Below, in pieces: positions 15,969 to 51,304 of a DNA stretch of 64,000 bases. Source of the stretch: Acidimicrobiales bacterium (GTDB lineage Bacteria > Actinomycetota > Acidimicrobiia > Acidimicrobiales > Aldehydirespiratoraceae). Below the pieces are notes generated by a model. It was not told where the DNA came from. It saw only the letters and a program-made list of their open reading frames with translations, and did not search any database. Where the stretch lies: contig JAQWLJ010000002.1 of the NCBI GenBank assembly GCA_029247365.1, forward strand, positions 73,111 through 137,110. The letters are read 5' to 3'. Made by a program: the position numbers and the translations under genes. Within the stretch, counting starts at the first letter, position 1, and each line of letters begins with the position of its first letter.

Positions 15969-17015
15969 TCAACATCCCGATCGGTGTGCCTCGGGTTCCC
16001 ACTCAAGAACGTGGAATCCACCGAACCCAGCGGCGTCGAGCAGGGCCTCAGCTTCTCGGAGACGACTCCGGCCCTTCAGCGCAGCAAGGTCGCCAACTGC
16101 GGAGCCGGCGTGCCACGCAGCCCGACCCTGATCAACGAGCTGGTCGATCCCGTGAGCTCGCAGAAAGTCGGCCTGCAGACGCACGCTCGTGGGGTGGAGT
16201 GCCAGGAGTTCGTCCAGCGGGAGGTCGACGGTGATGTCAACCAGGCCTGGATCAGCGAGCCAGTCGTCGATTCGATCGTGGTCTCGGTAGGCGCGTAGCC
16301 AGCCACCGTCACGAGTGACGAGTTCCTCCGCGGTGGCCATGTAGTCGAGCACAACGAGTCGTGCACTTGGGTGGCGCGCCCGCTGTGCAACCACCCAAGC
16401 AGCGGCGTTGTCGACACGCGGCAGCCTCGCACCATTTGCAATGGGCGGTGGAGCGACTGGGGGACCATCGACCAGGACAAACCGTCCGTCATCGATATCG
16501 ATGGCGAGCGCAACGCCTCGATCGCCGCGGCGGGCGACGATGTCGAACGGGAGGTTGTCGAGTAGCTCATTGGCGAAGACAACGTCCACGAGACCCTCCA
16601 CCTCGCTGGCGTCGGCGAAGGAGCTGAGAAAAGCACCTCCCGGGTGAGCTTCGCGCTGCGAAGCTGACGGTTCGATCATCACCCACCGAAGCGCTCCAGC
16701 GGCGAAACAGCCACCCTCCGCGGCCATGACGGTGCGCGCCAGCGTGCCCGGCCCAGCGCCGTGCTCAACAACAGTGAACCTCGCGGGTCGACCGGCTGAT
16801 TCCCACCACGAGTCGACGGCACCGCTGATGACGGCACCGAAAAGGGGCCCAACTTCGGGTGCCGTCAGAAAATCGCCGTGCCGTCCTGCCCGGCCGCCAA
16901 CCACATAGAAGCCTTCATGCTCGTCGTAGAGCGCAGCCTCAACGAACGTCGAGACGGGGATCGGGCCCTGATCGCGGATCTGGGCACGGAGGCGGTCGGC
17001 CAGCGGGGCCGCCAC
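15969..17015 (-). CDS. MidA/NDUFAF7-family SAM-dependent methyltransferase
   Basis: GFYVVGGRAGRHGDFLTAPEVGPLFG block. GTG 17015 lies 4 nt downstream of the nuoN stop (17020-17022); the tracked 17114 start would overlap nuoN. Confidence 0.7.
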   Translation of the reverse strand: MAAPLADRLRAQIRDQGPIPVSTFVEAALYDEHEGFYVVGGRAGRHGDFLTAPEVGPLFGAVISGAVDSWWESAGRPARFTVVEHGAGPGTLARTVMAAEGGCFAAGALRWVMIEPSASQREAHPGGAFLSSFADASEVEGLVDVVFANELLDNLPFDIVARRGDRGVALAIDIDDGRFVLVDGPPVAPPPIANGARLPRVDNAAAWVVAQRARHPSARLVVLDYMATAEELVTRDGGWLRAYRDHDRIDDWLADPGLVDITVDLPLDELLALHPTSVRLQADFLRAHGIDQLVDQGRAAWHAGSAVGDLAALKGRSRLREAEALLDAAGFGGFHVLEWEPEAHRSGC

Positions 17016-17019
17016 CGGA

Positions 17020-18528
17020 TCAGCCGCCGATACCAGCGAGGAGGCTGACGTCGAACTCGCTGATGAGCGACGGATACACACCGAAGGCGATCGTGACGCC
17101 GGCGGTGATGCCAAGGGCAGCCATCAGCGACGGGGTGACGCGCACCGGGGTGACGTCGCCGTCGGGAGCTTCTTCAGCCCACATTCCGAGGCCGATCCGG
17201 GCGTAGTAGTACAGCGCGATGACCGAGTTGACGGCGACGAACACTCCGAGCACCACACCCGAAGCAGTGTTGGCATCGATGACGGCTTCCATCACCCGGA
17301 ACTTGGCCCACCAGCCACCGAGCGGCGGAATGCCTGCAAGAGAGAACAAGAAGATCGTCATCGCAACCGTGAGCCCTGGCGCGTAGTGGAAGAGCCCGCC
17401 GAAGCTGTTGATCTCGGCCGAGCGGGTCTTGCGGGCGACGGCCATGACGACGGCGAAGGCCCCGAGGTTCATCGCTGCGTAAACGACGAGATAGGTCACC
17501 GTCGCCTCGAGCGCAACATCGCCGACAGTGCCCGCAACTGCGAGCGGCGCCAGCATGTAACCCGCCTGCGCGACGCCGGAGTAGGCGAGCATGCGGACGA
17601 TGTTGGTCTGTCGCAAAGCGATCAGGTTGCCGACCGTCATCGATGCCGCAGCGAGGATCCAGAGCACTGGCTCGTAGACATCGTCGCGGCCGAAGAAGCC
17701 GAGGAACAAGAGGTTCATCAGCGCCACAAAGCCGGCCGCCTTGGAGGCGACAGAAAGGAACGCGGTGACCGGGGTGGGGGCACCCTCGTAGGTGTCGGGT
17801 GCCCAGGTGTGGAACGGGAACGCCGACACCTTGAAGGCAAAGCCGATGATCACGAAGATGATGCCGAGTACGACCACGGCCGATGGGTTGCCGGCGGCAC
17901 TGATGGCCTCGTTGATGTTGACGAGCAGCGTTGAGCCAGCACCGCCGTAGAGCAGCGACATTCCGTAGAGCATGATCGCCGAGGCGAACACCCCCATCAG
18001 GTAGTACTTCAGACCCGCCTCGTTGCTCTTGAGGTCGCGCTTGCGCCAGGTTGCGAGCATGTACGCCGGAATCGACAGCAGCTCGAGCGCCACGAAGATC
18101 GTGATGAGGTCACGGGCTGAGGCCATGAGGACCATACCGAGCACCGAACTCAACAGGAGGCTGTAGTACTCGTTCTCCCAGTAGTCGCCCTCGGCGATGT
18201 AGTTCGTCGAGAGCAACACCACGACGTAGGCCGACAGCACGAACAGCGCCTTCATGACCAAGGCGTAGTTGTCGACGACAAACGCTCCGTTGAACATCGA
18301 ACGATCGGCACCGTCGACAGCCAGCGTGATGATCGGCACCATGGTGGCCAGCAGGCCAAGCGACGCCAGCAGCGGCGCCAGCCGACGCCCGCGCTCAAGC
18401 CAGATGATGTCCACCAACGTGAGCAATGCGCCGGCACCGAGCAGCGTGAGCTCGGGCGCGGCGGCGTGCCAGTCGATGGGGGGCCGGACGAAGTCCCCGG
18501 CGGACTGAGCGAGCTGGGCGAGCATCAT
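17020..18528 (-). CDS. nuoN: NADH-quinone oxidoreductase subunit N (EFG-less set)
   Basis: 502-aa polytopic antiporter-like subunit. Its start overlaps the nuoM stop by 1 nt. Confidence 0.9.
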   Translation of the reverse strand: MMLAQLAQSAGDFVRPPIDWHAAAPELTLLGAGALLTLVDIIWLERGRRLAPLLASLGLLATMVPIITLAVDGADRSMFNGAFVVDNYALVMKALFVLSAYVVVLLSTNYIAEGDYWENEYYSLLLSSVLGMVLMASARDLITIFVALELLSIPAYMLATWRKRDLKSNEAGLKYYLMGVFASAIMLYGMSLLYGGAGSTLLVNINEAISAAGNPSAVVVLGIIFVIIGFAFKVSAFPFHTWAPDTYEGAPTPVTAFLSVASKAAGFVALMNLLFLGFFGRDDVYEPVLWILAAASMTVGNLIALRQTNIVRMLAYSGVAQAGYMLAPLAVAGTVGDVALEATVTYLVVYAAMNLGAFAVVMAVARKTRSAEINSFGGLFHYAPGLTVAMTIFLFSLAGIPPLGGWWAKFRVMEAVIDANTASGVVLGVFVAVNSVIALYYYARIGLGMWAEEAPDGDVTPVRVTPSLMAALGITAGVTIAFGVYPSLISEFDVSLLAGIGG

Positions 18529-20126
18529 CAGCCTCCGGACGCCGCCTTGGCTGCATCGGCGACACCCTCACAGCCGTCAGGCAGCTGCAGGCAGTTGTTG
18601 AGCGACTCGACGACGGCCGGGTCGGTGACCTCGAAGATCAGACCGGGGGCGACACCGAAGAGCACGATCAGGAAGAGCAGCGGCGACCACGCAATCCACT
18701 CGAACGTGTTGACGTCGGTGATCTCGGGATCGTCTTTGAACTCATCGGGTGGCTCACCCATCGCAGTGCGCTGCAGCAACCACAGCAGGTAGCCGGCGGC
18801 AAGGACGGTGCCGATGGCGGCGACGACCATGTAGCCGCGGAAGGTTTCCTCGGCGAGACCGTTGGCCGGGTTGTAGGCCGACAGAATCGCCGGGAACTCA
18901 CCCCAGAAGCCGGCGAGGCCAGGCAGGCCGAGCGACGCCATCGCGGTGAAGCCCAGGATCCACCCGAGGTGCGGCGCCTGCACCAGCATGCCGCCAAGGC
19001 GGCCGATCTCGAGGGTGTGATAGCGCTCTTTCACCGAACCGGCGACGAAGAAGAGCATGCCGGTAATCAGGCCGTGAGCGACCATGCCAAAGATGGCGGC
19101 GTTGATACCGAAGTCGGTGAGGGTGGCGATGCCGAGCATTACGAAGCCCATGTGAGCCACCGACGAGAACGCGATCAGGCGCTTCATGTCGGTCTGGGCC
19201 AGACAGCCGAGAGCGCCGTAAATGATGCCGATGACGGCGAGCAGACCAATGTACGGAGCCCACGCCTCGGCCGCCTCGGGCAGCATCGGGATGGCGATGC
19301 GGATGAAGCCGTATGTCCCGAGCTTCAGAAGCACGGCCGCCAGAATGACCGAACCCTGGGTGGGTGCCTGGGTGTGGGCGTCCGGCAGCCAGGTGTGGAA
19401 CGGGAACATCGGGACCTTCACACCGAAGCCAAGGAACATGCCACCGAAGATCAGCAGCTGGCTGCTTCGGGTGATGCCGAGGCCCGCATTGTTCGTGAGG
19501 TCGACCATGTTGAAGGTGTGTTCACCGAGCGAGTCGGCCGACAAGAAGAACAGCGCGAGGAATCCCAGCAGCATGAGTGCCGACCCAAACAGCGTGTAAA
19601 GGAAGAACTTCAGCGACGCATAGCGGCGATCCTCGCCACCCCACACCGCGATCATGAAGAACATCGGGAGCAAGACGACCTCGAAGAAGACGAAGAACAA
19701 GATGAGGTCCTGCGCCACGAAGGTGCCGAGCATGCCCGTCTCAAGGATGAGCATCAGCATGAGGAATGCTTTGGCGTTACCCGGTGACGGGATGTGGTCC
19801 CACGAGTAGATGAAGACCAGCGGCATCACGAGCACGGAGAGCGCGATGAGCGGCAGGGACATGCCGTCGACGCCGATCGTATAGCCCGCGCCAATGACCT
19901 CGATCCATTCCTTGTCGAGCCAGTACTGGATCTGGCCGGCATTGTCGTAGTCGAAATCGAGCAACAACCAGACGCCGAGGCCAAGGGTGACCAGCGACGT
20001 GAGGAGGGCGAGCTGCTTGTGCAGCCCCTCTTCTTCGGAGGGGAAAAGCGCCATGATGAGCGCACCTGCCAGCGGGGCGAAGACCAGAGCGGTCAGCAGC
20101 CAGTCGTTTCCTGCGATGGGATCCAT
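18528..20126 (-). CDS. nuoM: NADH-quinone oxidoreductase subunit M (EFG-less set)
   Basis: 532-aa antiporter-like subunit with FPFHTWLPDAH and KLGTYG blocks. Confidence 0.9.
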   Translation of the reverse strand: MDPIAGNDWLLTALVFAPLAGALIMALFPSEEEGLHKQLALLTSLVTLGLGVWLLLDFDYDNAGQIQYWLDKEWIEVIGAGYTIGVDGMSLPLIALSVLVMPLVFIYSWDHIPSPGNAKAFLMLMLILETGMLGTFVAQDLILFFVFFEVVLLPMFFMIAVWGGEDRRYASLKFFLYTLFGSALMLLGFLALFFLSADSLGEHTFNMVDLTNNAGLGITRSSQLLIFGGMFLGFGVKVPMFPFHTWLPDAHTQAPTQGSVILAAVLLKLGTYGFIRIAIPMLPEAAEAWAPYIGLLAVIGIIYGALGCLAQTDMKRLIAFSSVAHMGFVMLGIATLTDFGINAAIFGMVAHGLITGMLFFVAGSVKERYHTLEIGRLGGMLVQAPHLGWILGFTAMASLGLPGLAGFWGEFPAILSAYNPANGLAEETFRGYMVVAAIGTVLAAGYLLWLLQRTAMGEPPDEFKDDPEITDVNTFEWIAWSPLLFLIVLFGVAPGLIFEVTDPAVVESLNNCLQLPDGCEGVADAAKAASGG

Positions 20127-20156
20127 GAGTCAGTGCTTCCTAAATGGATGTGAGTG

Positions 20157-22499
20157 CTAGAGGGCGAGAAGGATGACGAAGGCGCCAGCCAAGAGGGCAG
20201 CGCCGGCAAACATGATTGCGGCGTAGTTCTGGACCTTGCCGGAGTTGATGGCGCGGAGTTCTTCGCCGGAGGCGTCGGAGACACGACCCGACAGGTTGAC
20301 GGCGCCGTCGACGATGGTCTGGTCGATCTTGTGGTACACGAGTTGGCCGGTCTGCACGGCGGACTCGCCCGCCTTGTTGACCATGCCGTCGATGACGTTC
20401 TGGTTGACCCAGTTCACCGCTCGAGCGAGCGGGCCCTTTGTGAACCCGGCGATGACGCCGGTGTACAGGTGATCGAGGTAGTACTTGTTCACCAGCAGGT
20501 TGTGGCCGGCCCGGGCAAAAACGTTGGTGGTAGTAACCCCGTTGGGCATGCCGACCAGCGACTCGCCAAGTTGCTTGGAAAGTCGGTCGAGTCGAACGAA
20601 GTAGTAGTAGTACGCGAACGCGGCACCCACGACGGCGACCAGCGACGCAACGATGGCGAGCGACCAGCTCGGTGTGGCGTGTCCCACTGCAGGGAAGTAC
20701 GACGAACCAGCGGGTTCGATGAAGTGGAGGAAGCGTTCCTGCCAGCCTGAGGGATTCTTCTTCGAACCGGTGAGGAAACCGGGCGGGAAGTTGACGAAAC
20801 CAATGAGGATCGAGAACGCCGACAGGATGTAGAGCGGGTAGAGGATTCGAGGGCCCGATTCATGCGGCTCACCATGGTGAGCATGATCGTCGGCGTGGTC
20901 GTCGGCGTGGTCCTCATGATGGCCACCGCGGTACTCGCCGTGGAACGTGAGGTAGACGCAGCGGGTCATGTAGGCGGCAGTGAGCGCAGCGCCGATCATG
21001 CCCATGACGAAGTGGAAGGTGTAACTGCCCGGAGCCGCACCGCTACCGCCGAGCACACCCCACCCACCGGTGTTGACAAGAATCTCATCCTTGGACCAGA
21101 AGCCCGCGAGCGGGAACACACCGGCAAGCGCCAGCGAACCGATCACAAACGTGATGTAGGTCTTCGGCATGAACTTCCGCATACCGCCCATGTCGCGCTT
21201 CATGTCGAAGCTGTGGACGGCATGCGCAACCGAGCCCGAACCGAGGAACAGGTTGGCCTTGAAGAAAGCGTGGGTGAAGAGGTGGAACACTGCCGCAGTC
21301 CAGGCGCCAACGCCAAGGGCCATCGCCATGTAGCCGAGCTGCGAAACCGTCGAGTAGGCGAGCACCTTCTTGATGTCGTCCTGCACAAACGCCAGCAGAC
21401 CCGCACCGACCACGGTGATCGCACCAACGGTGGCGAGCAGGTTGATGCTCGAGCCTTCGATCTGCATGCCTTCCCAGAAGACCGGGTACAGGCGGGCGAC
21501 CATGTAGATACCGGCGACGACCATGGTGGCGGCGTGGATGAGCGCCGACACAGGCGTCGGACCGGCCATGGCGTCGGGCAGCCAGGTATGCAGCACGAAC
21601 TGGCCCGACTTCGACATGACGGCGGCTGTGAGACACGCCGCCGCAACGACCAGCGCTGTGTGGCTGACGCCACCCTGCACGATGGCCTCGTTGATCTTGA
21701 TGGTGTCGAAGGTCGTGCCACCACCGGCAGCGAAGAAGAGCGTGATCATGCCAACCAAGAGGCCAACGTCGCCGACACGGTTGGTGAGGAAGGCCTTCAG
21801 CGCGGCATCGCTGTTGGGCTTCTCTTCCCACCAGTGGCCGATAAGGGCGAACGAACAGACACCGACGAGCTCCCAGCCGACGATCATCTGAAGAATGTTG
21901 TCGCTGAGGACGAAGAACAGCATCGACGCAGTGAACAGTGACAAGAACGCAAAGAAGTGCGTATAGCGCCGATCGCCGCTGACATAGTCGGTCGAGTAGA
22001 TGTGCACCAGCAGCGAGATGAACGTGACGACGAAGAGCATCATCACGCTGAGGCCATCGACCATGATCCCGGCGTTGAATTCGATACCCCCAGACTGCAG
22101 CCACTGGGTGGACTGCTGCACGGCGACGTAGGCGTGGGTCCCGCCGTCGCCCGCTTCAGCAGCGAGGGTGCCAACCGCGTACTCGGCGGTGTCGCTCGCA
22201 GAGCCCGCACCGTCGCTCAAGGCAATGGCGTGCTCGTCGTCGTGCTTTTCGAGCTCGAAGTTGTCGCGGTGATCCATCCACGCAACACCGCTGAGGATCG
22301 CAAGGACGAACGACGCTGACACGGCAGCGATGCCGATCTCGGCGCCCTTGTATGGCATGCGCTTGCCGAAGAACAGGATCAGGACGAATGAGATCGCCGG
22401 GAGCAGTGGGATGATCCACGCGTTCTCCAGGAACCAGTTGGCGTCGTTGGTGACGGTGGTGACCTTCGAGACGGCGTCGGCAGCGAGGGTGGCGAACAC
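20157..22499 (-). CDS. nuoL: NADH-quinone oxidoreductase subunit L (EFG-less set), extended
   Basis: 780 aa. HTWLPDAMAGPTPVSALIHAATMV block and a C-terminal lateral-helix region. Has an extra N-proximal insertion and a His/Asp-rich loop. Confidence 0.9.
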   Translation of the reverse strand: MFATLAADAVSKVTTVTNDANWFLENAWIIPLLPAISFVLILFFGKRMPYKGAEIGIAAVSASFVLAILSGVAWMDHRDNFELEKHDDEHAIALSDGAGSASDTAEYAVGTLAAEAGDGGTHAYVAVQQSTQWLQSGGIEFNAGIMVDGLSVMMLFVVTFISLLVHIYSTDYVSGDRRYTHFFAFLSLFTASMLFFVLSDNILQMIVGWELVGVCSFALIGHWWEEKPNSDAALKAFLTNRVGDVGLLVGMITLFFAAGGGTTFDTIKINEAIVQGGVSHTALVVAAACLTAAVMSKSGQFVLHTWLPDAMAGPTPVSALIHAATMVVAGIYMVARLYPVFWEGMQIEGSSINLLATVGAITVVGAGLLAFVQDDIKKVLAYSTVSQLGYMAMALGVGAWTAAVFHLFTHAFFKANLFLGSGSVAHAVHSFDMKRDMGGMRKFMPKTYITFVIGSLALAGVFPLAGFWSKDEILVNTGGWGVLGGSGAAPGSYTFHFVMGMIGAALTAAYMTRCVYLTFHGEYRGGHHEDHADDHADDHAHHGEPHESGPRILYPLYILSAFSILIGFVNFPPGFLTGSKKNPSGWQERFLHFIEPAGSSYFPAVGHATPSWSLAIVASLVAVVGAAFAYYYYFVRLDRLSKQLGESLVGMPNGVTTTNVFARAGHNLLVNKYYLDHLYTGVIAGFTKGPLARAVNWVNQNVIDGMVNKAGESAVQTGQLVYHKIDQTIVDGAVNLSGRVSDASGEELRAINSGKVQNYAAIMFAGAALLAGAFVILLAL
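20889..20912. repeat. Perfect 12-bp tandem duplication (GTCGGCGTGGTC x2) inside nuoL
   Basis: Read directly from the sequence. On the coding strand it gives DHADDHAD within HHEDHADDHADDHAHHGEPHE. Confidence 0.9.
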
Positions 22500-22503
22500 A
22501 GCG

Positions 22504-22803
22504 TCAGCCCTTCAGCAGATCGGCCTCAGAGAGGTCGATACTGCGGCGGTTGCGGTACATGAGCAAGACGATGGCAAGACCGATGCCGACTTCGGCGGCA
22601 GCGACTGCGATCGTGAAGAGGGCGAACACGGCACCACCGACATCGTCGGTGAGCGTGCCGAACGCCACGAGGTTGATGTTGACGGCGTTGAGGATCAACT
22701 CAATCGACATCAATACGAGCATGCCGTTCTTGCGAACGAGGACGCCGTACACGCCGATACAGAACAGCACGGCGGCAAGCAGGAGGAACTGGTTGAGCAG
22801 CAT
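22504..22803 (-). CDS. nuoK: NADH-quinone oxidoreductase subunit K (EFG-less set)
   Basis: 99 aa with 3 TM segments and a [10 protein letters not shown] block. Confidence 0.9.
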
Positions 22804-22815
22804 GAGCGATCCTCC

Positions 22816-23346
22816 TCAGTCCTGCCGGGCCACGACGATGGCCCCGATGAGGGCGGCGAGCAGAAGCACGGACACGGCCTCGAACGGCACGATGTACTGG
22901 CTGAAGATCGAGTCGGACACCGTGGCCACCGACTGCGGTTCGTCCGCAGTGATCTCGGTATCGTCGAAGGAATCGACGAGTGCAAGGGCCATCACAGCGA
23001 AGAGCAGGATGCCGACGACGCTGGCCATCGCCCTTTTCTCATCGGCGACAGTTTCGTCGTCGCCCATCGACGCCCGCGTGAGCATGACACCGAACAAGAA
23101 CAGCACGATCACCGCGCCGATGTAGACAAGAATCTGCGTCACGGCGACAAACTCGGCACCGAGGAAGAGGAACTGGACGGCGACGCCGGCGAGCACGACG
23201 ACCAGCCACAGGGCGGCGTGTACCACGTTCTTGGTGGTCACGACCCGCAGCGCTGCGTAGACCATCACGGCGGCAATGACGCCCCAGAACGAGTTGACCA
23301 CCCACTTCTCGGTGGTGGTGAACTCGGCGAGAAGAAGACCGGTCAC
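22816..23346 (-). CDS. nuoJ: NADH-quinone oxidoreductase subunit J (EFG-less set)
   Basis: GTG 23346 overlaps the nuoI stop (GTGA). [26 protein letters not shown] blocks. Confidence 0.85.
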
Positions 23347-23882: not shown

Positions 23883-23890
23883 AGCGAGTC

Positions 23891-32716: not shown

Positions 32717-32717
<1 letters not shown>
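31089..32717 (-). CDS. nuoM: NADH-quinone oxidoreductase subunit M (14-subunit set), His/Asp-rich C-terminal tail
   Basis: 542 aa. FPVHTWLPDAH block. The tail reads DLDHLNHGDDHGDDPDHEEEDH. Confidence 0.9.
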
Positions 32718-35011
<2,294 letters not shown>

Positions 35012-35025
35012 GGTCAGTCCCTCAC

Positions 35026-43680: not shown

Positions 43681-44201
43681 CGTTCGTTGCTCGCTGCTTT
43701 GAACTGCACAGGGATCGAACCGATGGCGTAGTCCTTGCGGAGCGGATGCCCTACCCAGTCCTCGGGCATCAGAACCCGGCTCATGTCGGGGTGGTCGGTG
43801 AACTCAATGCCGAACATGTCGAAAACCTCCCGCTCGAGATTTTCGGCGCCAGGCCAAAGATCGAACAGCGTGGGGATGACTGGCTCATCAGCATTGACCT
43901 GCATCCGAATACGAACGCGTTCGCGGGTGGTGTGGTTGATCAGCTGGGTGACGAGCTCGAAGCGCTCGGCCTCAATGCCGGCAGGCAGGTTCCGGGGCGC
44001 GGCATAGGTGAGGTAGTCGACCGCGGTCAGATCGACGAGCTGGCCGAAACCGTCGGCCTGCGCCTCCGTGCAGCCGTCGAGGTAGGTGTCGACAAACGCG
44101 TGGAGCACGCCGTCACCGGCGTCGACCATTCCGTATCGCATCGCGACCGGGGTCGCGGCCTCGTCCGTCGCCTCCTCGGCGATTTCCGGTTCGTCGCTCA
44201 C
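43677..44201 (-). CDS. nuoC: NADH-quinone oxidoreductase subunit C (14-subunit set)
   Basis: 174 aa with a LEREVFDMFGIEFTDHPD block. Confidence 0.9.
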   Translation of the reverse strand: MSDEPEIAEEATDEAATPVAMRYGMVDAGDGVLHAFVDTYLDGCTEAQADGFGQLVDLTAVDYLTYAAPRNLPAGIEAERFELVTQLINHTTRERVRIRMQVNADEPVIPTLFDLWPGAENLEREVFDMFGIEFTDHPDMSRVLMPEDWVGHPLRKDYAIGSIPVQFKAASNER

Positions 44202-44203
44202 CG

Positions 44204-44797
44204 TCAGCCCCCGATCGTCAGGCCGGCGGTCTGACCGTCGCGCTGCTCGATGGTGATACCGGCGCCGCCCCCGTTTGCCTGACGGCGCTGGGTGAGTTCA
44301 CCGGATTGGATCTTCTCGTGCACAGTGAAGATCGCGTGAAGGAGCGTTTCGGGGCCCGGAGGGCAACCCGGCGCGTACACGTCGACGGGCACAACCTGAT
44401 CGACGCCCTGCACGATCGCGTAGTTGTTGAACATCCCGCCGCTCGATGCGCACACGCCCATGGAGATGACCCATTTGGGCTCCATCATCTGGTCGTAGAC
44501 CTGTCGCAGCACTGGCGCCATCTTCTGGCTCACACGGCCCGCAACGATCATGAGATCGGCCTGACGGGGGGACGCCCGGAAGGTTTCCATGCCGTATCGG
44601 GCGAGGTCGTAGTGCGCCGCGCCGGTGGCCATCATCTCGATCGCGCAACAGGCGAGGCCAAACGTCGCTGGCCACAGGCTGCGGGCGCGGGCCCACTGGA
44701 CGAGGTTCTCGATGTTGCCGGTGAGGAAGTTGTGCTCGAACCCCTCGAGGCCGTGGTCGGCAATATCGCCGACGTCGCCGATCCCAGGAATCTTCAT
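44204..44797 (-). CDS. nuoB: NADH-quinone oxidoreductase subunit B (14-subunit set)
   Basis: [21 protein letters not shown] and GCPPGPE blocks. Confidence 0.9.
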
Positions 44798-45252
44798 CAG
44801 GCCGCCTCGCGTCCGTCGGTACCGACCCGTCGGATCGTGGACTCGGCGGTGCGTTCAGGCGACACAGCCCCTGACGGCGCCATGGTCTGTTTGAGCGGAC
44901 CCCACTCCAGGGCACCGTTGGAGATCAGGTACACGAACGACTCGAAGACAGCGAATGTGAACACCATGATCACGACGAGGCCGAAGAAGCCGAGACCCCC
45001 GAAGGCCACCGCATACGGGTAGAAGAAAATGATCTCAATGTCGAAAACGATGAAGATCATCGCAACGAGGAAGAACTTCACCGGAAAACGCTCGGGCGTC
45101 TCTTTGGTCGGCACGATGCCGCACTCGTAGGCCGCACGCTTGGCGTGCGTGGGGTTACGGGGAGCCAAAAGTCCTGAGGCGATGAAACTGCCGGACGCAA
45201 ACAAGAATGCCAGCACGAACAGCGCCAGCAATGGGAGGTACTGGCCCAGCAT
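44797..45252 (-). CDS. nuoA: NADH-quinone oxidoreductase subunit A (14-subunit set), extended C-terminus
   Basis: YECG and [10 protein letters not shown] blocks. 151 aa. Confidence 0.9.
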
Positions 45253-45255
45253 GGC

Positions 45256-46374
45256 TTACGCCCCTTCGAACTCGGCCCGGCGCGCCATCACGAGTTTGTC
45301 CCGCTCATGAAGCATGTAGCAGAGGGCGAAGAAGATCAGCAGGGAGCCGATCGTGACCATGGCCGGCCGGAAACGAACGTTGCCGAGGTCACGGATCATC
45401 ACGACCGAGACGACTGGCTCTTCGGTATCGACCACGGGACGCTGGGGAGCGGTACCCGGCAGGTTGGTGATCGACTCCTCGGTAACTTGCTGAAGCTGGA
45501 CGATGCCGTAGCGGGTCGGATGGGTGATCTGCGCGGTCTGGCGGACCTTGGTCCAGACGCGGTCCCAGACATTCGGATCGTCGGGCAGGCCTTCCTTGCC
45601 GCCGATGGTGAAGGCATCGAGCAGCTTGAACTCCACCTGACTACCGAACGAGAAGTCGTTCGATTCAAGGACAATCGCAATCGCCGATGCTTGCGCTTCG
45701 CCGGATTCGGCAGTGGAGAGGAGGGTCCAGCCGCCGAGCTCGTCAGCGTCCGGATCGATGATCCCCGGGGCGACCGCAGCAAGCTCGGAGAGTGTCGTGG
45801 CCTCGTTCTTTGACTGCTCTTCGGCGGCGAGGTCGTCGATCTCCGCGTCGCTGAGACCTTCCGTCTGATCGGCGGTGAGGGTGTCGGCGGTGACGGTGCC
45901 AAACTCGAGCCAGGCTGTCTGCACCTCACCCAGGTGGGCCACCTCGTCGCTGGTCAGGCCACCTGTTCCCATGGTGAGCCAATTCGACCCATAGTCAGAC
46001 TCGGCAGCCGCGCCGGCATCGACCACGATCTCGTGAGCAGTCGGCAGCGACTCCGCCTGGAGAATGTTGGCCTCGTCGAGCGCGGCGTAGGTCAGGCGAC
46101 CCTCGTCGTCGGTTCCCTCGACGATCTCAACCTCGACCCAGGTAGGGGCATCCCCCGCCCAGCCGATGCCGTAGATCCACCAGATTGAACCCATGATTGC
46201 CATCCAGCCGAACAAGGCAGCAAGCGCAAGAAGGGTGCCGAGGCGGGGACCGGAGTTGGAGCTCAGGAGCAACCAAACCGAGCCCATCAAGGTGACCGCC
46301 ATGGCGAGCACCGCAAGGAAACCGCGGATTTCAGGGTCCCAGGCAAGACCTGCGATCAGGTCGAGCATCTCCAT
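45256..46374 (-). CDS. Membrane protein with large acidic soluble domain, unknown function
   Basis: 372 aa with N-terminal hydrophobic segments, an acidic middle and a C-terminal TM. The start shares 1 nt with the cytochrome c stop. The stop lies 3 nt before the nuoA start. Confidence 0.55.
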   Translation of the reverse strand: MEMLDLIAGLAWDPEIRGFLAVLAMAVTLMGSVWLLLSSNSGPRLGTLLALAALFGWMAIMGSIWWIYGIGWAGDAPTWVEVEIVEGTDDEGRLTYAALDEANILQAESLPTAHEIVVDAGAAAESDYGSNWLTMGTGGLTSDEVAHLGEVQTAWLEFGTVTADTLTADQTEGLSDAEIDDLAAEEQSKNEATTLSELAAVAPGIIDPDADELGGWTLLSTAESGEAQASAIAIVLESNDFSFGSQVEFKLLDAFTIGGKEGLPDDPNVWDRVWTKVRQTAQITHPTRYGIVQLQQVTEESITNLPGTAPQRPVVDTEEPVVSVVMIRDLGNVRFRPAMVTIGSLLIFFALCYMLHERDKLVMARRAEFEGA

Positions 46375-47864
46375 CAGAGTGTCCTCTCGAACGCAACGAT
46401 CGCATCGATCTGGTCAGCGGTGAGTAGCGCCGGGTACCGGAACTCGACGCCGGTACCCGGGCCCATACCAGGGCCCTGGGGGTTCGATTCGGTGAGCGGC
46501 CCGAAGCCGGGCATCTGGCCATTGCCACCCGAGCCGCCACGGCCGTAGGGAGCACCCATGGCCTGGCCCCGCTCGATGAAGGTCGCGTGACCCGCAGCCG
46601 TCTCGAACTGGTCGAGTGTGGAGCCGCCACGGAGGTTCGGGCCAAAGAAGCCACCACCCTGGACGTACTCGTCGAGGATGGCTTCGTCGGTGCCATTCGC
46701 CTCGATCATGTACGGGCCGGTCGCATCAAAGCTCCAGCCATAGGTATGGCAACGGGCGCAGCTATAGGTACCGGCAGCCGCCTCGTTGGCGAACAGGATT
46801 TCGCCGTACTGCAGGTAGGCAGCCTGACCCTCGAACGAGTCAGGGGTCGACAGGATCTCGAGCGCCGCGAAGCGCCACTTTTCCTCGTTGCCCCCGTCGT
46901 CGAGCGACGGGTCGGCCTCGAGAGCAATCTCTCGAGCGGTCTGCTGGGCGGACTGGACGTCGGCCCACCAGGCGTCGAATGCGGACTGCAGCGGCTGGTC
47001 TGCTGCGCTGTTCGACGTCTTGAGCGCCTCTCGCGCCGCCATATCGGCGTCGCATTCCGGCACCCCATCGGCTGCAGCACAGTCGAAACCGAACTCGTCA
47101 CGAGCGATGAGCCTCACAGCCCACGCGGCCTCGTCAGCGCTGGCCTGCGCAGCGCGCAGATCGACGGCCCACGACTCGTCGCTCGTTGCCATGATCAGAT
47201 CTTTTGCACCGTCCTCAACTCCGCTCGCGACCTGCTCACGGATCTCATCTTCGGTGATCTGGATGTTGCGAAGATAAAAGAGGATCTCTTCGAGTTGCTG
47301 ATCGGTGAGCGGACCACCGCCGCCGGCACCCCAGGCCGGCATGACACCGTTGCGGCCGTAATTCAGGGTGTGGAGAACTTCGTCTTCGGTGTAGCGCGAC
47401 AGCACAGTGTCGATTGCAGGCGCCTTCCATGACACTTGGGCGACGAACTCACCCGACGCGGATGTGATCGCGGTGCTGACCGCACCGCCCGAGCCCTCGG
47501 GGCCGTGACAGCTGACGCACTGGGCGCCCTCGACGTAGATCTCCTCGCCACGGTTGGTGAAGATCCGCCAGGTATCGATGTCGCGGCCTTCGTGCCGGCC
47601 CGGCTCGCCAAGCCAGTAGAGCGGCAACGTGACCGCTGTAATAGTGAGCAGCACAAGGCTGGTGCCAAGCGCTAGGTCGAGCTTCTTGCCCTCAAGATCC
47701 TCGTCGGACAGGTACGGCTTCCGGTTCGAGGCAAGCTCGAGCTCAGATCCGATCTCATCTCGAGCTGAGCGGATGTTGAAATAGATGTAGACGAGCCCAC
47801 CAAAAAAGACGATCGCCAAAATGACGAGGCCGATGGTTCGTTGTGTTGATGCAGCGAACAACAT
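46374..47864 (-). CDS. Membrane-anchored dihaem c-type cytochrome (two class-I domains split by a long linker)
   Basis: CVSCH (about aa 116) with GVMPAWG, and CARCH (about aa 369) with GQMPGFG. Two N-terminal hydrophobic helices. Confidence 0.8.
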   Translation of the reverse strand: MLFAASTQRTIGLVILAIVFFGGLVYIYFNIRSARDEIGSELELASNRKPYLSDEDLEGKKLDLALGTSLVLLTITAVTLPLYWLGEPGRHEGRDIDTWRIFTNRGEEIYVEGAQCVSCHGPEGSGGAVSTAITSASGEFVAQVSWKAPAIDTVLSRYTEDEVLHTLNYGRNGVMPAWGAGGGGPLTDQQLEEILFYLRNIQITEDEIREQVASGVEDGAKDLIMATSDESWAVDLRAAQASADEAAWAVRLIARDEFGFDCAAADGVPECDADMAAREALKTSNSAADQPLQSAFDAWWADVQSAQQTAREIALEADPSLDDGGNEEKWRFAALEILSTPDSFEGQAAYLQYGEILFANEAAAGTYSCARCHTYGWSFDATGPYMIEANGTDEAILDEYVQGGGFFGPNLRGGSTLDQFETAAGHATFIERGQAMGAPYGRGGSGGNGQMPGFGPLTESNPQGPGMGPGTGVEFRYPALLTADQIDAIVAFERTL

Positions 47865-47909: not shown

Positions 47910-48794
47910 CTAGTGCGAAGACTGGCCGATGCAGTTGGGCCCCTCGGCCTCCTGGCCGGTGGTATTGGTGCCGATCGGCGGGCCCTGGATGATCGTGCCG
48001 GTGTCGACGGTGAGGGTGCCGGCCGCATCGACACTCATGGCGAAGCGGTCCATGCCGCGCGGGGCTGGGCCACCACGCTTCTCGCCTACGCGGTTGTACT
48101 GCGAGCCGTGGCAAGGGCACTCAAACCACTGTGAGGTGACGCACTCGGGAACACGGCAGCCGAGATGCGGACACTTCTGATAGATCGCGATGACGCCGCC
48201 GTCGAGGCCAAGGTTGATACCCGCTTCCATACCAGCGAGCTCAGGCGCCGAGTAGGCGACCCGCGCCTTCTCAACCGCTCCGTTGGGATACTCGGTGAGC
48301 CACATCCGACCCTCGGCGCGGTACAAAAAGCCGTTGCTGTTGCGGATCTCTGTGAGCACGTCGCTGACGAAACCAACCTTGATAGCGGAACCGAAGCCAC
48401 CGCCGAGTTGGGGCCAGAGGAAGGCAATGCACGCCAGACCGAAGCCACCGAGGCCGATCTGCATCATGAGGATGATCGTTCGGTTGAAGAACTGACGTCG
48501 ACTGACCCCGATGACCTCGGGATCTGGCGGCACGTACGGAGCCGGTGGGGCCGACTGCCGGGCGGCAAGCACCAGCTCATTAGACGCAGCCTTGCGCTCA
48601 AGGACCTGTGCCTTCTCGACCTGCTTACCGGTGAGCGCTGACTCCTCGCCGAGCACGGTCGACGGCTTGTCACGCTTGCGCGTTTCTCCGGACAGCACAC
48701 CGACAGCCTCGTCAGCGTCCCGACCCTTGAGGGTCACGAGCGCGGCGAGGCCACCGAGGACCACCAACACGATGAGAGCGATTGCGAGTGCCAT
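47910..48794 (-). CDS. Rieske [2Fe-2S] subunit of a Rieske/cytochrome b complex
   Basis: CPHLGC ... CPCHGSQY boxes and an N-terminal TM anchor. Confidence 0.85.
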   Translation of the reverse strand: MALAIALIVLVVLGGLAALVTLKGRDADEAVGVLSGETRKRDKPSTVLGEESALTGKQVEKAQVLERKAASNELVLAARQSAPPAPYVPPDPEVIGVSRRQFFNRTIILMMQIGLGGFGLACIAFLWPQLGGGFGSAIKVGFVSDVLTEIRNSNGFLYRAEGRMWLTEYPNGAVEKARVAYSAPELAGMEAGINLGLDGGVIAIYQKCPHLGCRVPECVTSQWFECPCHGSQYNRVGEKRGGPAPRGMDRFAMSVDAAGTLTVDTGTIIQGPPIGTNTTGQEAEGPNCIGQSSH

Positions 48795-48810: not shown

Positions 48811-49596
48811 TCAGAGCTCGAAGAACAGGCCGGCTTCCCATGGGAAGACGAAGTTGAAGCCAGGACCGCGGAAGAAAGAACCGATCATGACGAGTACCGC
48901 CCAGAACATCAGATGGACGGTCATGAGCGAGATCGCAAACTTGCGGTCTTCGGGCTTCGGGGACGGGTTGCGGTCGATGTACGGCGCAAACATGAGGATG
49001 AAGAGGCCGATACCCGGGATGGTCACGCCGGCGACCATCGGGTGGAACATGGTGAGCAGCTCCTGCAGGCCGAGGAAATACCACGGCGCCTTGGAGGGGT
49101 TCGGGGTCTCGTTGAAGTTGGCCAACTCGAGCAACGGGGCGTTGACAAAGATCGAGAAGATCAGGGTGAATGCCGTGATGAAGAGCGCTGCGGCGAACTC
49201 GACCACGAGCAGGTGCGGCCACGTGTGGACCTTGTCCTGAGGCAAGCCCTTGACGTCTTGAATCGAACCGGACTTGACCACCGTAAGCAGGCGCTGGGTG
49301 TGACCACCCGGGCCGGTCGGGACCGGACCGCCACCCGAGGCTGCGGGCGCAGCCGCGGTGGGCGCCGTGGCGACGGCGGTGCCGCCACCGGCGTCGTCGC
49401 CACCATCGGCCTTGGCCTTGGCCGCGCGCGAACGCTCAAGCAAGTGCGCGGGGATCTTGCTGGCTGCTTCCTGCTGCTCGGCCGACATTGCCTCGACAGG
49501 AGCTTCCGGTGGAGCATCGGCAGCAGCCTTGGCGGCCGCGGCCTTGGCGCGAGCCTCTTCGGCTCGCTTCCGGAGATGTTCGGGGACTTCGGTCAT
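48811..49596 (-). CDS. Cytochrome b C-terminal part / subunit-IV (PetD-like), with ~110-aa Ala/Lys-rich N-terminal extension
   Basis: HTWPHLLVVEF and SKAPWYFLGLQELL (Qo-site PEWY position) blocks. Confidence 0.8.
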   Translation of the reverse strand: MTEVPEHLRKRAEEARAKAAAAKAAADAPPEAPVEAMSAEQQEAASKIPAHLLERSRAAKAKADGGDDAGGGTAVATAPTAAAPAASGGGPVPTGPGGHTQRLLTVVKSGSIQDVKGLPQDKVHTWPHLLVVEFAAALFITAFTLIFSIFVNAPLLELANFNETPNPSKAPWYFLGLQELLTMFHPMVAGVTIPGIGLFILMFAPYIDRNPSPKPEDRKFAISLMTVHLMFWAVLVMIGSFFRGPGFNFVFPWEAGLFFEL

Positions 49597-49614: not shown

Positions 49615-50409
49615 TTAGAGCGGACCTGAGATGCCGCCATCTTTGCGGACCCGCCAGAAGTGGATCGCCATAAAGATGACGAGCACGAACGGAAGCAAGA
49701 GGACGTGCAGCACGTACCAACGTAACAATGTGTCGGTGCCGATCTCGACGCCACCGAGCAGCACGAATCGAACCTGTTCACCAAAGACTGGCGTGTACCC
49801 CATCATGTTGGTACCCACCGTCACCGCCCAGAGGGCCAACTGATCCCAGGGCAAGAGGTAGCCGGTGAACGAAAGCAGCAAAGTGAACTGTAGTAGATTG
49901 ACGCCGATCACCCAGTTGAACTCTCGAGGGGCCTTGTAGGCGCCGTGGTAGAAGACGCGCGCCATGTGCAAGAACACCGACAGGACCATGAGGTGCGCGG
50001 CCCATCGATGCATGTTTCGCACAAGCAGACCGAACGTCACCGAGTTCTGCAAGGTGTAGATGTCGTCCCAGGCCGCGGCGGCGGTCGGACGGTAGAAGAA
50101 CATCAAGAAGATGCCGGTAACCGTCAACAGGATGAAGAGGAAGAAGCTCAGGCCGCCAAGGCACAGCGTGTAGCTGACCTTGACCGCATGACGCTTCACC
50201 TTCACCGGGTGCAGGTGGTACAGCACCGAGTTCATGATCACATAGCTGCGGTTTCGGGGGCTGTCGGTGTAGCCCTTTCGAAAGATCGAGCCGGGGCGGA
50301 AGATGGAGTTCCAGGCCTGGCTGCCCTGCACCTGGTCGGTGAGGTTCGCCATCTGGTCCTGCATCCGCTGCGGTAGCGGCTTCTTGACTTCGTCATCGGT
50401 GGTCGCCAT
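49615..50409 (-). CDS. Cytochrome b6-type (N-terminal four-helix) subunit
   Basis: Haem ligand pairs MHRWAAHLMVLSVFLH (H-x13-H) and HVLLLPFVLVIFMAIH (H-x14-H). TLCLGG block. Confidence 0.85.
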   Translation of the reverse strand: MATTDDEVKKPLPQRMQDQMANLTDQVQGSQAWNSIFRPGSIFRKGYTDSPRNRSYVIMNSVLYHLHPVKVKRHAVKVSYTLCLGGLSFFLFILLTVTGIFLMFFYRPTAAAAWDDIYTLQNSVTFGLLVRNMHRWAAHLMVLSVFLHMARVFYHGAYKAPREFNWVIGVNLLQFTLLLSFTGYLLPWDQLALWAVTVGTNMMGYTPVFGEQVRFVLLGGVEIGTDTLLRWYVLHVLLLPFVLVIFMAIHFWRVRKDGGISGPL

Positions 50410-50438
50410 TGAAATGTGGTTTCTCCCGCGTGCCCGGC

Positions 50439-50855
50439 TCAGCCGAGACGCATTCCGTATCCGTAGCCGTGCGAGTTGGTGCGCTGGTGAGCATCGCCAC
50501 CGGCGGCAGGATCACCGATCTTGCCGAGGATGATGACGCCCGTGGGGCACCGATCGACACAGAGTGCACACCGGGTGCACACGTCGTCATCAATCGTAAA
50601 GATCACTTTGTCGTTAGGGTCGTCGCCCGGGAGTTCGGTACCGATCGCCTCATCGACGGCATCGGTTCGCACCATGTGGATGCACTTCCACGGGCAGATG
50701 TCAACGCAGCCCTCGCACATGATGCACTCGGACTGGTCGATATGGATGAACTGCTTTGGCTTGACCTGCGAGGTGAGCCACGCAGCGTCGACCTGCTGCA
50801 GGACGTAGTCGTCGCGGAACTCCGGGAGCGGAGGATTCGCGTCGGTCGTGGTCAC
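50439..50855 (-). CDS. 2x[4Fe-4S] dicluster ferredoxin-like protein
   Basis: CIMCEGCVDICP and CTRCALCVDRCP motifs. GTG 50855 overlaps the upstream stop (GTGA). Confidence 0.75.
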   Translation of the reverse strand: MTTTDANPPLPEFRDDYVLQQVDAAWLTSQVKPKQFIHIDQSECIMCEGCVDICPWKCIHMVRTDAVDEAIGTELPGDDPNDKVIFTIDDDVCTRCALCVDRCPTGVIILGKIGDPAAGGDAHQRTNSHGYGYGMRLG

Positions 50856-51304
50856 GACTCTGCCCCCTCCTTCACCAGAGGACGACCAAAGTGGCTGCGC
50901 GCGACCGGCTTCTCGGCCTGCTGCTCGCCACGCTTTTGCCAGGCGGACCACATCCAGATGTTGCCGCCGAGGGCAACGATGTAGATGCCGACAGCGATGA
51001 GGTCACGCAGGACGATGTAGGTGATGCGGATCGGCGACCAGCCGCCGTCCTCTTGGCTCTTCAGAATGTCACCGGGGCCAAAGAGGATCTTGTCGACGCG
51101 CCAGTTGAGTTCATTGTCGGCCCAGGTCAGCCACTGATGCGGCACGACGCCGTACACCCAGAACATGAGGAAGAAGACGACCAGCGAGCCCATCATCGCC
51201 TCGCCCCAGGTCAGGACTTGGTCGGCCGGGCGGCGCTTCTGGTATGCGAGGATGCCACCCACGATGAGGGCAGTGACGATCAGCGATGTCACGAAGGCAA
51301 CCAC
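50852..51304 (-). CDS. Small membrane protein (about 3 TM), unknown function; first gene of the array
   Basis: 150 aa. GTG start with an AGGAG 8 nt upstream (51312-51316 on the + strand). Confidence 0.55.
   Translation of the reverse strand: MVAFVTSLIVTALIVGGILAYQKRRPADQVLTWGEAMMGSLVVFFLMFWVYGVVPHQWLTWADNELNWRVDKILFGPGDILKSQEDGGWSPIRITYIVLRDLIAVGIYIVALGGNIWMWSAWQKRGEQQAEKPVARSHFGRPLVKEGAES

Follow-up and report, generated by a model that had tools for sequence, protein, structure and literature searches.

A 64-kb window of genomic DNA from the metagenome-assembled genome (MAG) of a marine Acidimicrobiales bacterium (64,000 nt of contig JAQWLJ010000002.1, positions 73,111 to 137,110) was analyzed, in which 35 genes for respiratory enzymes lie on the minus strand between positions 51304 and 15969. 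They comprise genes for a Rieske/cytochrome b complex of the b6c type, a full 14-gene complex I operon (nuo1), genes for a small membrane protein (smem) and a molybdenum (Mo) enzyme, and an 11-gene complex I-like operon without nuoEFG (nuo2) followed by a gene for a MidA-family protein. The gene chain was re-derived by listing open reading frames (ORFs), by codon-position GC (GC1/GC2/GC3) and by start/stop mapping; the GC content of the window is about 64%. The layout described in the original prediction was reproduced. From 51304 to 27871, 23 minus-strand genes follow each other with a largest intergenic gap of 45 nt (47865-47909, Rieske to cytochrome c), most junctions being overlaps of 1, 4 or 8 nt or gaps of a few nt. 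After a gap of 256 nt (27615-27870), 12 further genes run from 27614 to 15969 with junctions of -23 to +30 nt. The family assignments made there were likewise all confirmed by Pfam, with Cytochrome_B, Cytochrom_B_C, Rieske, Cytochrome_CBB3 and Fer4 in the upstream part. No Pfam or NCBIfam family was found for three ORFs, namely memU1 (50852-51304), JX (45256-46374) and smem (28926-29396). Since the codon-position GC pattern of the next upstream gene (51484-52386) is that of plus-strand coding, 51304 is the true upstream boundary of the array.

The upstream part of the array leads directly into the complex I genes. The first gene, memU1, is followed by genes for a ferredoxin-like protein (Fer4), for the two halves of a split cytochrome b (cytochrome b6 and subunit IV), for a Rieske protein and for a cytochrome c, with gaps of 29 nt between Fer4 and cytochrome b6, 18 nt between cytochrome b6 and subunit IV and 16 nt between subunit IV and Rieske. 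JX (45256..46374, minus strand), which encodes an orphan protein of 372 aa, stands between the cytochrome c gene and nuoA. Its ATG overlaps the cytochrome c stop codon by 1 nt, and nuoA starts 3 nt past its own stop codon; this 3-nt gap leaves no room for a promoter between JX and nuoA. Thus, the claim that the Rieske/cytochrome b genes run into nuoA through a translationally coupled membrane protein without a known family was borne out by the junctions. Within nuo1, overlaps of 1, 4 or 8 nt or gaps of at most 14 nt were found, and the chain continues with nuoN to smem (+4 nt) and smem to the Mo enzyme gene (-4 nt).

The original prediction had proposed a synteny survey of this gene order in related genomes, and its outcome was strongly positive. 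An alignment of JX homologues was scanned against one genome per GTDB species, which yielded 144 stretches with a JX relative; the best 80 of these 144, with 10-kb flanks, formed the synteny set (loci carry L numbers below), onto which the window proteins were mapped by tblastn. The order and strand memU1, Fer4, cytochrome b6, subunit IV, Rieske, cytochrome c, JX and nuoA to nuoJ/K were the same in 80/80 loci as far as the contig reaches, and the nuo1 order from A to J/K was kept in all loci long enough. In this set JX identity was 54-85%, NuoD1 identity 74-96% and GC content 50-72%. Four distant JX members that were looked up (profile E values of 1e-35 to 1e-73, lengths of 273-407 aa), one from a Tara contig of 45% GC and one from a 1.7-Mb contig, all had the same arrangement. 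JX was thus located between a cytochrome c gene and nuoA in 84/84 JX-anchored contexts, at GC contents of 45-72%. The median junctions across loci were -1 nt for cytochrome c to JX, +3 nt for JX to nuoA and -4 nt for memU1 to Fer4; a minority of larger values, in more distant loci, may reflect start-codon misassignment. The genes from 51304 to 29401 are a fused cluster that is kept across the clade. Co-expression of the b6c-type complex with complex I is well supported by this comparison.

Only one conserved promoter-like region was found in the fused core, and it lies upstream of the first gene. This putative control region (51305..51483, minus strand) contains a -10-like TACACT (51360-51365), directly followed by the Rex-operator-like palindrome TTGTGCATGGATTCACGA (51341-51358), and an AGGAG Shine-Dalgarno sequence 7 nt before the GTG at 51304. 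The palindrome deviates from the Rex operator consensus TTGTGAANNNNTTCACAA by two mismatches and is the only such site in the 64-kb window, with 0.06 expected. A hexamer TA[CG]A[CA]T of the TANNNT type precedes the first gene in 70/71 loci. A site resembling the Rex operator with at most three mismatches occurs within 150 nt upstream of memU1 in 37/71 loci, compared with 10 of 2000 random 150-nt windows (0.5%). In Streptomyces avermitilis, Rex represses nuoA1-N1, and its footprinted sites, which resemble the palindrome of the window, include TTGTGCACGCGTTCACAA and TTGTGATACGGTTCACGA (PMC5355995). From the position and form of the site we infer that one NADH/NAD+-responsive promoter may serve both the b6c genes and nuo1.

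The adjacency could also be functionally meaningless, i.e., two ordinary operons might simply be packed together while internal promoters in the cytochrome c gene or in JX drive nuo. This reading would be favored by the weak definition of actinobacterial promoters, to which a generic scan is blind; large operons are, moreover, common in streamlined marine Acidimicrobiia (PMC7771536). However, the fusion and its 1-3-nt junctions persist over GC contents of 45-72% and genome sizes of about 1.7 to 4.5 Mb, so the fusion is not a by-product of streamlining. A dedicated orphan gene is always found at the joint, and the Rex-type operator that stands at nuoA in Streptomyces is placed before the b6c genes here. 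Chance packing was therefore regarded as unlikely.

The proteins encoded before JX are, apart from memU1, of recognizable families. The Fer4 gene (50439..50855, minus strand) encodes a soluble, NuoI-like 2[4Fe-4S] ferredoxin-like protein of 138 aa with matches to Pfam Fer4 families and without TM (transmembrane) segment or signal peptide. Its best NCBIfam match was the NuoI subfamily (41 bits, below the cutoff), and it shares 33% identity over 72 aa with NuoI1. Both Cx2Cx2Cx3C motifs were present in 72/72 loci, and Fer4 identity was 82-99%. The N-terminal half of the split cytochrome b is of the cytochrome b6 type (49615..50409, minus strand; 264 aa; Pfam Cytochrome_B, 1.4e-44) and scored 164 bits against cyanobacterial and chloroplast cytochrome b6 structures versus about 83 bits against mycobacterial and corynebacterial QcrB. 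In an alignment to Nostoc cytochrome b6, the four His ligands of the b haems are kept at MHRW, FLHM, VLHV and AIHF, and the Cys of a CLGG motif, which occurs in 72/74 loci, aligns with b6 Cys35, the covalent ligand of haem ci. A cytoplasmic iron-sulfur subunit such as the predicted Fer4 protein beside a haem-ci-type complex is an interesting feature.

The C-terminal half of the split cytochrome b resembles subunit IV (48811..49596, minus strand; 261 aa; Pfam Cytochrom_B_C). It has three TM-like segments by hydropathy scan and a long N-terminal tail, and its Qo motif is APWY (SKAPWYFLG), which was found in 74/75 loci. The Rieske [2Fe-2S] protein (47910..48794, minus strand; 294 aa; Pfam Rieske) is closest to b6f-type Rieske proteins among PDB and NCBIfam entries, and its boxes CxHxGC and CxCH were present in 76/77 loci. 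The next gene (46374..47864, minus strand) encodes a membrane-anchored dihaem class-I cytochrome c of 496 aa (Pfam Cytochrome_CBB3 and Cytochrom_C) with CxxCH at residues 116 and 369 and an N-terminal TM segment; two CxxCH motifs between Rieske and JX were found in 76/77 loci having both anchors.

Split cytochrome b, His and Cys ligands, the APWY motif and an adjacent Rieske gene all place these genes in the b6-type split APWY clade of cytochromes b, and the upstream part of the array is predicted to encode an APWY-clade, b6-type Rieske/cytochrome b complex with quinol:cytochrome c activity. Two other names were considered and rejected. Identity with the canonical actinobacterial QcrCAB was excluded by the split cytochrome b, the APWY motif and the lower score against QcrB, and the NCBIfam models for the actinobacterial bc1 complex were far below their cutoffs (QcrB 120/500 bits, QcrA 23/275 bits). 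The cytochrome b6 exceeded the NCBIfam equivalog cutoff for ExtP, a b-type cytochrome of a selenite/tellurite reduction operon (305 vs 290 bits). Since the multihaem cytochromes and the porin of the ext type are absent from the window and from the 84 related contexts, the name ExtP would be a misannotation, and the score reflects only a shared cytochrome b subfamily.

Subunit IV and a divergently encoded cytochrome c have a short peptide motif in common, (V/I)P(E/A)HL(L/R)xR(A/S)xxA(R/K)A. Two copies were observed in the cytoplasmic tail at the N-terminus of subunit IV (minus strand, at 49584 and 49452), and one copy at the N-terminus of the cytochrome c (51604, plus strand). Six-frame translations of the 80 loci gave 113 occurrences before subunit IV, in 72 loci, and 26 before the divergent cytochrome c, with none elsewhere; the motif may be a docking or targeting peptide common to both proteins. 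The divergent gene (51484..52386, plus strand; likely start near 51592) encodes a membrane-anchored monohaem cytochrome c with one CxxCH, one TM segment and a weak Pfam Cytochrom_C match. It shares the control region with the fused operon and is its neighbor in about half of the loci.

The nuo1 operon (29401..45252, minus strand) follows JX, and every subunit has a Pfam match. Its genes are nuoA (44797-45252), nuoB (44204-44797), nuoC (43677-44201), nuoD (42382-43680), nuoE (41741-42385), nuoF (40320-41744), nuoG (37843-40320), nuoH (36617-37846), nuoI (35989-36624), nuoJ (35343-35996), nuoK (35026-35343), nuoL (32717-35011), nuoM (31089-32717) and nuoN (29401-31089). In the order A to N the matches were Oxidored_q4, Oxidored_q6, Complex1_30kDa, Complex1_49kDa, 2Fe-2S_thioredx, Complex1_51K, NuoG domains, NADHdh, Fer4, Oxidored_q3, Oxidored_q2 and three times Proton_antipo_M. 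The operon is thus predicted to encode a 14-subunit complex of the Nuo type in canonical order, with NADH:quinone oxidoreductase activity and proton pumping. NuoL1 (764 aa) was observed to carry a hydrophilic, Ala/Glu/Lys-rich insertion of about 130 aa at residues ~450-585 (window ~33259-33664), immediately ahead of the conserved HESP/TM15 segment. The insertion is probably helical, and L081, L087 and L088 have the same length of 764 aa. In NuoL2 (780 aa), a His-rich loop takes the corresponding position, and the protein is extended at its N-terminus.

Two orphan proteins belong to the fused core. MemU1 (50852..51304, minus strand), the product of the first gene of the operon, is a membrane protein of 150 aa with about three TM segments, as three hydrophobic segments in the hydropathy scan indicate; its gene precedes Fer4 in every locus reaching that far, at 55-93% identity. 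In the hydropathy scan, JX shows two TM segments near its N-terminus, then an acidic and soluble domain of about 260 aa, and finally a C-terminal TM segment and a basic tail. By the positive-inside rule, the soluble domain would face the outside, where the domains of the Rieske protein and of cytochrome c would also lie. An AlphaFold (AF2) model of JX had a pLDDT (predicted local distance difference test) of 68.7. Foldseek found no counterpart of the model's fold in the PDB (best E 0.36), and the JX profile matched PDB sequences only once, at chance level. Since neither search gave a PDB match, no function was transferred to JX. In a profile search of 1.84 billion cluster representatives, 708 clusters at 50% identity were found at E ≤ 1e-3; thus, the JX family is much broader than the 80 loci. 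The named homologues all came from MAGs of Acidimicrobiia or Actinomycetota, and the JX of the window is 100% identical to a hypothetical protein of an Acidimicrobiales MAG at NCBI. For JX and MemU1, the most likely roles are those of assembly factors or accessory subunits, be it of one complex or of both, and for JX itself the roles of accessory subunit, assembly factor or tether may be considered.

Complex I and the b6c complex might also be physically joined. Supercomplexes of complexes I and III exist in mitochondria and in Paracoccus, and Actinobacteria build an obligate III2IV2 assembly. By the corresponding reading, the two complexes form a stable NADH:cytochrome c oxidoreductase supercomplex, the fused operon serves their co-assembly, and tethering would be done by JX, perhaps also by MemU1, by the NuoI-like ferredoxin or by the long insertion of NuoL1. 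In favor of this reading, JX is an orphan membrane protein that is conserved at the junction only (84/84 contexts), with translational coupling to both neighboring genes; its large domain probably shares one side of the membrane with those of Rieske and cytochrome c; extra subunits are conserved with the b6c genes; and NuoL1 carries its insertion and keeps its length in relatives. However, gene adjacency predicts co-expression, not binding, and the linkage seen here is genetic only. The JX model is moderately confident and matches no known linker or subunit, and a role of JX as a chaperone in assembly, or as a subunit of just one complex, is equally conceivable. Physical joining, which the original prediction had raised as a possibility, was judged plausible but unlikely. 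A more specific version was given a still lower probability, namely a dedicated NADH:cytochrome c oxidoreductase 'megacomplex' in Acidimicrobiia that is made from one mRNA, is held together by JX and MemU1 and carries the NuoI-like 2[4Fe-4S] subunit on the cytoplasmic face beside haem ci. If true, it would open up the function and structure of the uncharacterized APWY clade for the first time and would be a genetically hard-wired bacterial I-III assembly.

Beyond nuoN, the array becomes variable. The smem gene (28926..29396, minus strand) starts 4 nt past nuoN1 and encodes an orphan membrane protein of 156 aa with three TM-like segments. The following gene (27871..28929, minus strand), whose start overlaps the smem stop by 4 nt, encodes a SUOX-fold molybdoenzyme of 352 aa with Pfam matches to Oxidored_molyb (144.9 bits) and Mo-co_dimer (30.7 bits), both above the cutoff, and without signal peptide or TM segment. 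Its identification as a SorA/SorT sulfite dehydrogenase was rejected, with NCBIfam scores of 143 and 139 bits versus equivalog cutoffs of 600 and 570 and with no signal peptide. Its candidacy as a conserved member of the operon was dropped as well: the enzyme was found at this position only among homologues of about 82% identity (L081, L082, L161 and L172), and homologues of 59-61% identity occur in unrelated neighborhoods. In two loci with the Mo homologue elsewhere (L083 and L084), a gene located about 3 kb upstream of this homologue (~6163-6903) codes for a CIA30-domain protein (complex I intermediate-associated protein 30), which is probably coincidental. The smem gene follows nuoN1 together with the Mo gene in L081, L082 and L161 and without it in L105, L132, L167 and L199. 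L087, L088 and L171 lack smem, and there nuoA2 lies about 150 nt past nuoN1. Judged by these distributions, smem and the Mo gene are a variable insertion, with the Mo gene as a recent, lineage-specific one.

A further reading concerns the direction of electron flow. In lithotrophs, electrons are pushed uphill from cytochrome c to NAD+. The APWY complex and complex I might operate in reverse in the same manner, with the SUOX-like enzyme as a possible source of electrons. In favor of this, the gene coupled to nuoN in this lineage resembles those for sulfite dehydrogenases, and a reversed Q cycle was proposed for an APWY-clade complex of Geobacter metallireducens (PMC4122944). However, the Mo enzyme, which has neither signal peptide nor TM segment, is predicted to be cytoplasmic and thus away from cytochrome c, and it is not in the cluster in most relatives. 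The Rex-type operator would imply induction at high NADH, which fits NADH oxidation, and argues for forward operation. Reverse operation was consequently given a very low probability.

The nuo2 operon (17020..27614, minus strand) comprises nuoA (27249-27614), nuoB (26758-27258), nuoC (26085-~26780), nuoD (24916-26088), nuoH (23891-24919), nuoI (23343-23882), nuoJ (22816-23346), nuoK (22504-22803), nuoL (20157-22499), nuoM (18528-20126) and nuoN (17020-18528). Eleven Nuo families were identified by Pfam, and 2Fe-2S_thioredx, Complex1_51K and NuoG domains were not found in this operon. The same order of 11 genes occurs in L081, L082 and L086-L090. Since the paralogues of nuo1 and nuo2 share only 23-48% identity, the duplication is ancient. 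For the EFG-less nuo of Actinomarinales, F420 was suggested as electron donor, by analogy only (PMC7771536).

Within the 256-nt gap before nuo2 (27615..27870, minus strand), the proximal ~100 nt (27615-~27720) constitute a conserved element in front of nuoA2. It contains CCCGGCTTTGTTCTGCCC at 27639-27659 and a TANNNT-type TAGGCT (TAGG[CG]T in relatives) 8 nt before the GTG and has no Shine-Dalgarno sequence. A pattern scan of metagenomes for this leader returned 120 stretches, mostly by chance, of which 14 were true leaders after filtering. In total, 22 instances of the element were found, in tandem and in stand-alone nuo2 contexts alike. We infer that it may be a promoter for a leaderless or short-leader mRNA. 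An RNA structure, i.e., a hairpin with a U-tract acting as attenuator or terminator, was considered and dropped: RNAalifold gave no prediction, no compensatory changes were seen, and the predicted fold of the gap RNA is not more stable than that of shuffled sequences (z = 0.37). The gap contains one weak hairpin resembling a terminator (27776-27756), and Rfam searched against the gap at permissive E-values gave no match. An inverted repeat, GC(T/C)GGGAA...TTCCCGGC, was observed in the element immediately upstream of a -35-like TTGTTC. Its 3' arm is invariant, partly since the search pattern required it. As the repeat is kept even where the upstream gene is divergent, it does not simply terminate the operon before it. 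It could act as an operator, to which the product of the downstream TetR gene perhaps binds.

The last gene of the array (15969..17015, minus strand) encodes an S-adenosylmethionine-dependent methyltransferase of the MidA/NDUFAF7 family (Pfam Methyltransf_28 (DUF185), 74.6 bits vs a cutoff of 23.3). It starts 4 nt past nuoN2 in the window and 6-13 nt past it in L086, L087, L088, L089 and L090, i.e., in 5/5 other loci reaching that far. In the window and in these loci it pairs with the EFG-less nuo and not with the full nuo, which suggests that the MidA homologue serves the 11-subunit enzyme. The Arg of the 49-kDa subunit NuoD that we take to be the candidate methylation target of MidA is kept in NuoD1 (GVLRL) as well as in NuoD2 (GTLRI), so the NuoD sequence does not tell which complex is served. 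About 230 nt past MidA, a TetR-family regulator is encoded (15109..~15735, minus strand; Pfam TetR_N and TetR_C_1; start codon uncertain). It follows MidA in L086, L087, L089 and L090 and not in L088, thus in 5/6 cases counting the window.

All 35 genes might form a single super-operon, transcribed by read-through from the Mo gene into nuoA2. They lie on the same strand, the 256-nt gap holds no convincing intrinsic terminator, and a tandem of nuo1 and nuo2 also occurs in L087, L088, L171 and others. However, nuo2 and MidA stand alone behind unrelated or divergent genes in L086, L089, L090 and L121, and the stand-alone nuo2 keeps the ~100-nt element with TANNNT 8 nt before the start and no Shine-Dalgarno sequence; thus, nuo2 has its own signals. 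The material between the nuo sets also varies, so that nuo2 is found in tandem with nuo1, with smem, with smem and the Mo gene, or alone. A single transcription unit of this length was accordingly considered improbable. The picture of 35 genes as one conserved array did not hold, with the Mo enzyme between the nuo sets only in the closest relatives and with an EFG-less nuo and MidA module that occurs by itself with its own conserved upstream element. The array consists of three modules, i.e., the fused b6c-nuo1 core, the insertion of smem and the Mo gene, and the EFG-less nuo with MidA. The co-expression of the b6c genes and nuo1 suggested in the original prediction is supported by synteny, junction spacing and the single conserved promoter-like region.

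By the best-supported reading of the sequence data, about two transcription units make up the 35-gene array, which would be a mosaic and not one conserved super-operon. The first unit would extend from ~51350 to 27871 and carry 23 genes on one transcript of ~23.4 kb, which would be made from a promoter ~55-60 nt upstream of the first gene. Its products would be the APWY-type b6c complex, the accessory proteins, complex I and, in this lineage, smem and the cytoplasmic SUOX-like enzyme. A Rex-like sensor of NADH/NAD+ would control the promoter in this lineage, so that upon accumulation of NADH the NADH-to-menaquinone and menaquinol-to-cytochrome c steps would be switched on together and in fixed proportion. 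The second unit, from 27614 to 15969 and perhaps on to the TetR gene, would provide the EFG-less complex and MidA. By this reading, nuo2-MidA is an older module of paralogous genes, distinct from the first unit and preceded by a conserved leader that resembles a promoter. Its place behind nuo1 is one of several arrangements seen in relatives. Taken as a whole, i.e., a co-transcribed b6c-nuo1(-smem-Mo) unit under Rex-like control next to the separate, older nuo2-MidA module, this reading is considered probable.

Several points weigh against the two-unit reading. Co-transcription is suggested by spacing, synteny and a consensus-type reading of the promoter, and internal promoters may exist within coding sequence. 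A generic sigma-70 promoter scan of 15-53 kb, which is blind to weakly defined actinobacterial promoters, gave no match, and an intrinsic-terminator scan of the same region gave terminator-like matches that were all inside genes and at or near shuffle level; thus, the two scans do not help to split the array. Since no strong terminator was found after the Mo gene in the terminator scan and in the comparison of the fold with shuffles, read-through from the Mo gene into nuo2 is possible. The Rex-operator-like site is absent in an Aldehydirespirator-like subclade, and no rex gene was found among the scanned ORFs of the window. Finally, all loci of the synteny set were reached through JX, so that the survey shows JX to be always sandwiched and does not give the share of Acidimicrobiia with the fusion.

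Elsewhere in the window, Rfam at gathering thresholds gave no match over the whole length. At the left end (1-7251), a cluster for the kynurenine pathway and de novo NAD synthesis was observed 9 kb from the NADH dehydrogenase operons; it contains genes for kynureninase, an FAD monooxygenase, tryptophan 2,3-dioxygenase, an aldehyde dehydrogenase, a DHDPS-like protein, aspartate dehydrogenase and quinolinate phosphoribosyltransferase.

All components of the array are of known kinds. Complex I and Rieske/cytochrome b complexes are textbook enzymes that are separately encoded and regulated in model bacteria. Here, both operons are hard-fused clade-wide; the joint is marked by a conserved orphan gene, and there is one control site resembling that of a redox sensor. 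This makes the cluster a natural system for studying whether complexes I and III are assembled together or physically coupled in bacteria. It also offers a handle on the uncharacterized APWY clade and flags the NuoI-like ferredoxin, MemU1 and JX as candidate extra subunits. With respect to annotation, pipelines will probably misname the cytochrome b6 as the ExtP cutoff is passed, and surveys of the KEGG type may score complex III as missing in marine Acidimicrobiia although a b6c-type complex precedes nuo. The MidA/NDUFAF7 homologue with the EFG-less nuo provides a bacterial setting for studying this assembly factor. No description of a Rieske/cytochrome b-nuo fusion was found in the full-text literature, the coverage of which lacked most subscription journals, so that absence there is no proof. 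What was not found described comprises the clade-wide fusion via a dedicated orphan gene, the extra conserved putative subunits and the Rex-type candidate site shifted before the b6c genes. The tandem of 14-gene and 11-gene nuo clusters is already published (PMC7771536).

Among known systems, the window complex resembles the APWY clade of split, CxGG-bearing cytochromes b defined by Kao & Hunte 2014, of which no member has been characterized in vitro or in vivo (PMC4122944). Among the few Actinobacteria with a split cytochrome b, the same paper lists Ilumatobacter coccineum (Acidimicrobiia; cultured as I. coccineus YM16-304), placed in the PEWY-cytochrome c or the APWY clade. The window complex shares with the APWY clade, including ExtOPQ of Geobacter, the split cytochrome b, the haem-ci Cys in CxGG and the APWY Qo motif. 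What differs here is that its genes are accompanied by those for a dihaem cytochrome c, a NuoI-like 2[4Fe-4S] protein and two orphan membrane proteins and are fused to nuoA-N. ExtOPQ of Geobacter is encoded among multihaem cytochromes and a porin in an extHIJKLMNOPQS-type cluster (PMC5877670), whereas the window is without these.

The closest solved relatives of the cytochrome b and Rieske proteins are the cyanobacterial and chloroplast b6f and the Firmicutes b6c complexes, with which they share a four-helix b6, a three-helix subunit IV and the haem-ci Cys. The window complex differs from them in its Qo motif (APWY, not PEWY or PDWY), a dihaem cytochrome c in place of cytochrome f, no small Pet subunits, the extra Fer4 and orphan subunits and the respiratory setting. 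The actinobacterial QcrCAB of the III2IV2 assembly is from the same phylum and likewise has a dihaem cytochrome c subunit and a menaquinol-oxidizing role, but QcrB is unsplit, with ~540 aa and a PDWY Qo motif, whereas the cytochrome b of the window is split and carries APWY. In model actinobacteria, the qcr genes are linked to cta genes and not to nuo. The mitochondrial respirasome and the I-III-IV assembly of Paracoccus place the same two activities in series on one quinone pool. These supercomplexes were physically shown and their genes are not known to be fused into one operon, whereas the window presents a genetic fusion alone.

The genomes of 'Ca. Actinomarinales' resemble the window in having a full nuo near an EFG-less nuo paralogue within Acidimicrobiia. 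There, the two sets are separated by heliorhodopsin and iron-uptake genes (PMC7771536), whereas here a small ORF and the Mo enzyme gene, or nothing, lie between them, or the sets are unlinked. In the same paper, complex III was reported as missing by KEGG reconstruction, and MidA and a b6c-nuo fusion were not mentioned (PMC7771536). Two small contigs of marine Acidimicrobiia, L093 and L095 (the latter with 45% GC), were observed to carry the b6c cluster directly before nuo; their affiliation with Actinomarinales is a possibility only, and the "missing" complex III of some marine Acidimicrobiia may be an overlooked one of the b6c type.

With regard to control, the Rex-regulated nuoA-N of Streptomyces is the nearest counterpart, as it is also a 14-gene nuo operon and its promoter carries an operator of the TTGTGAA-N4-TTCACAA type (PMC5355995), to which the window site has two mismatches. 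The Rex-type site of the window is putative and lacking in one subclade. Whereas the Streptomyces operator stands directly before nuoA, seven b6c-related genes lie between the putative operator and nuoA in the window.

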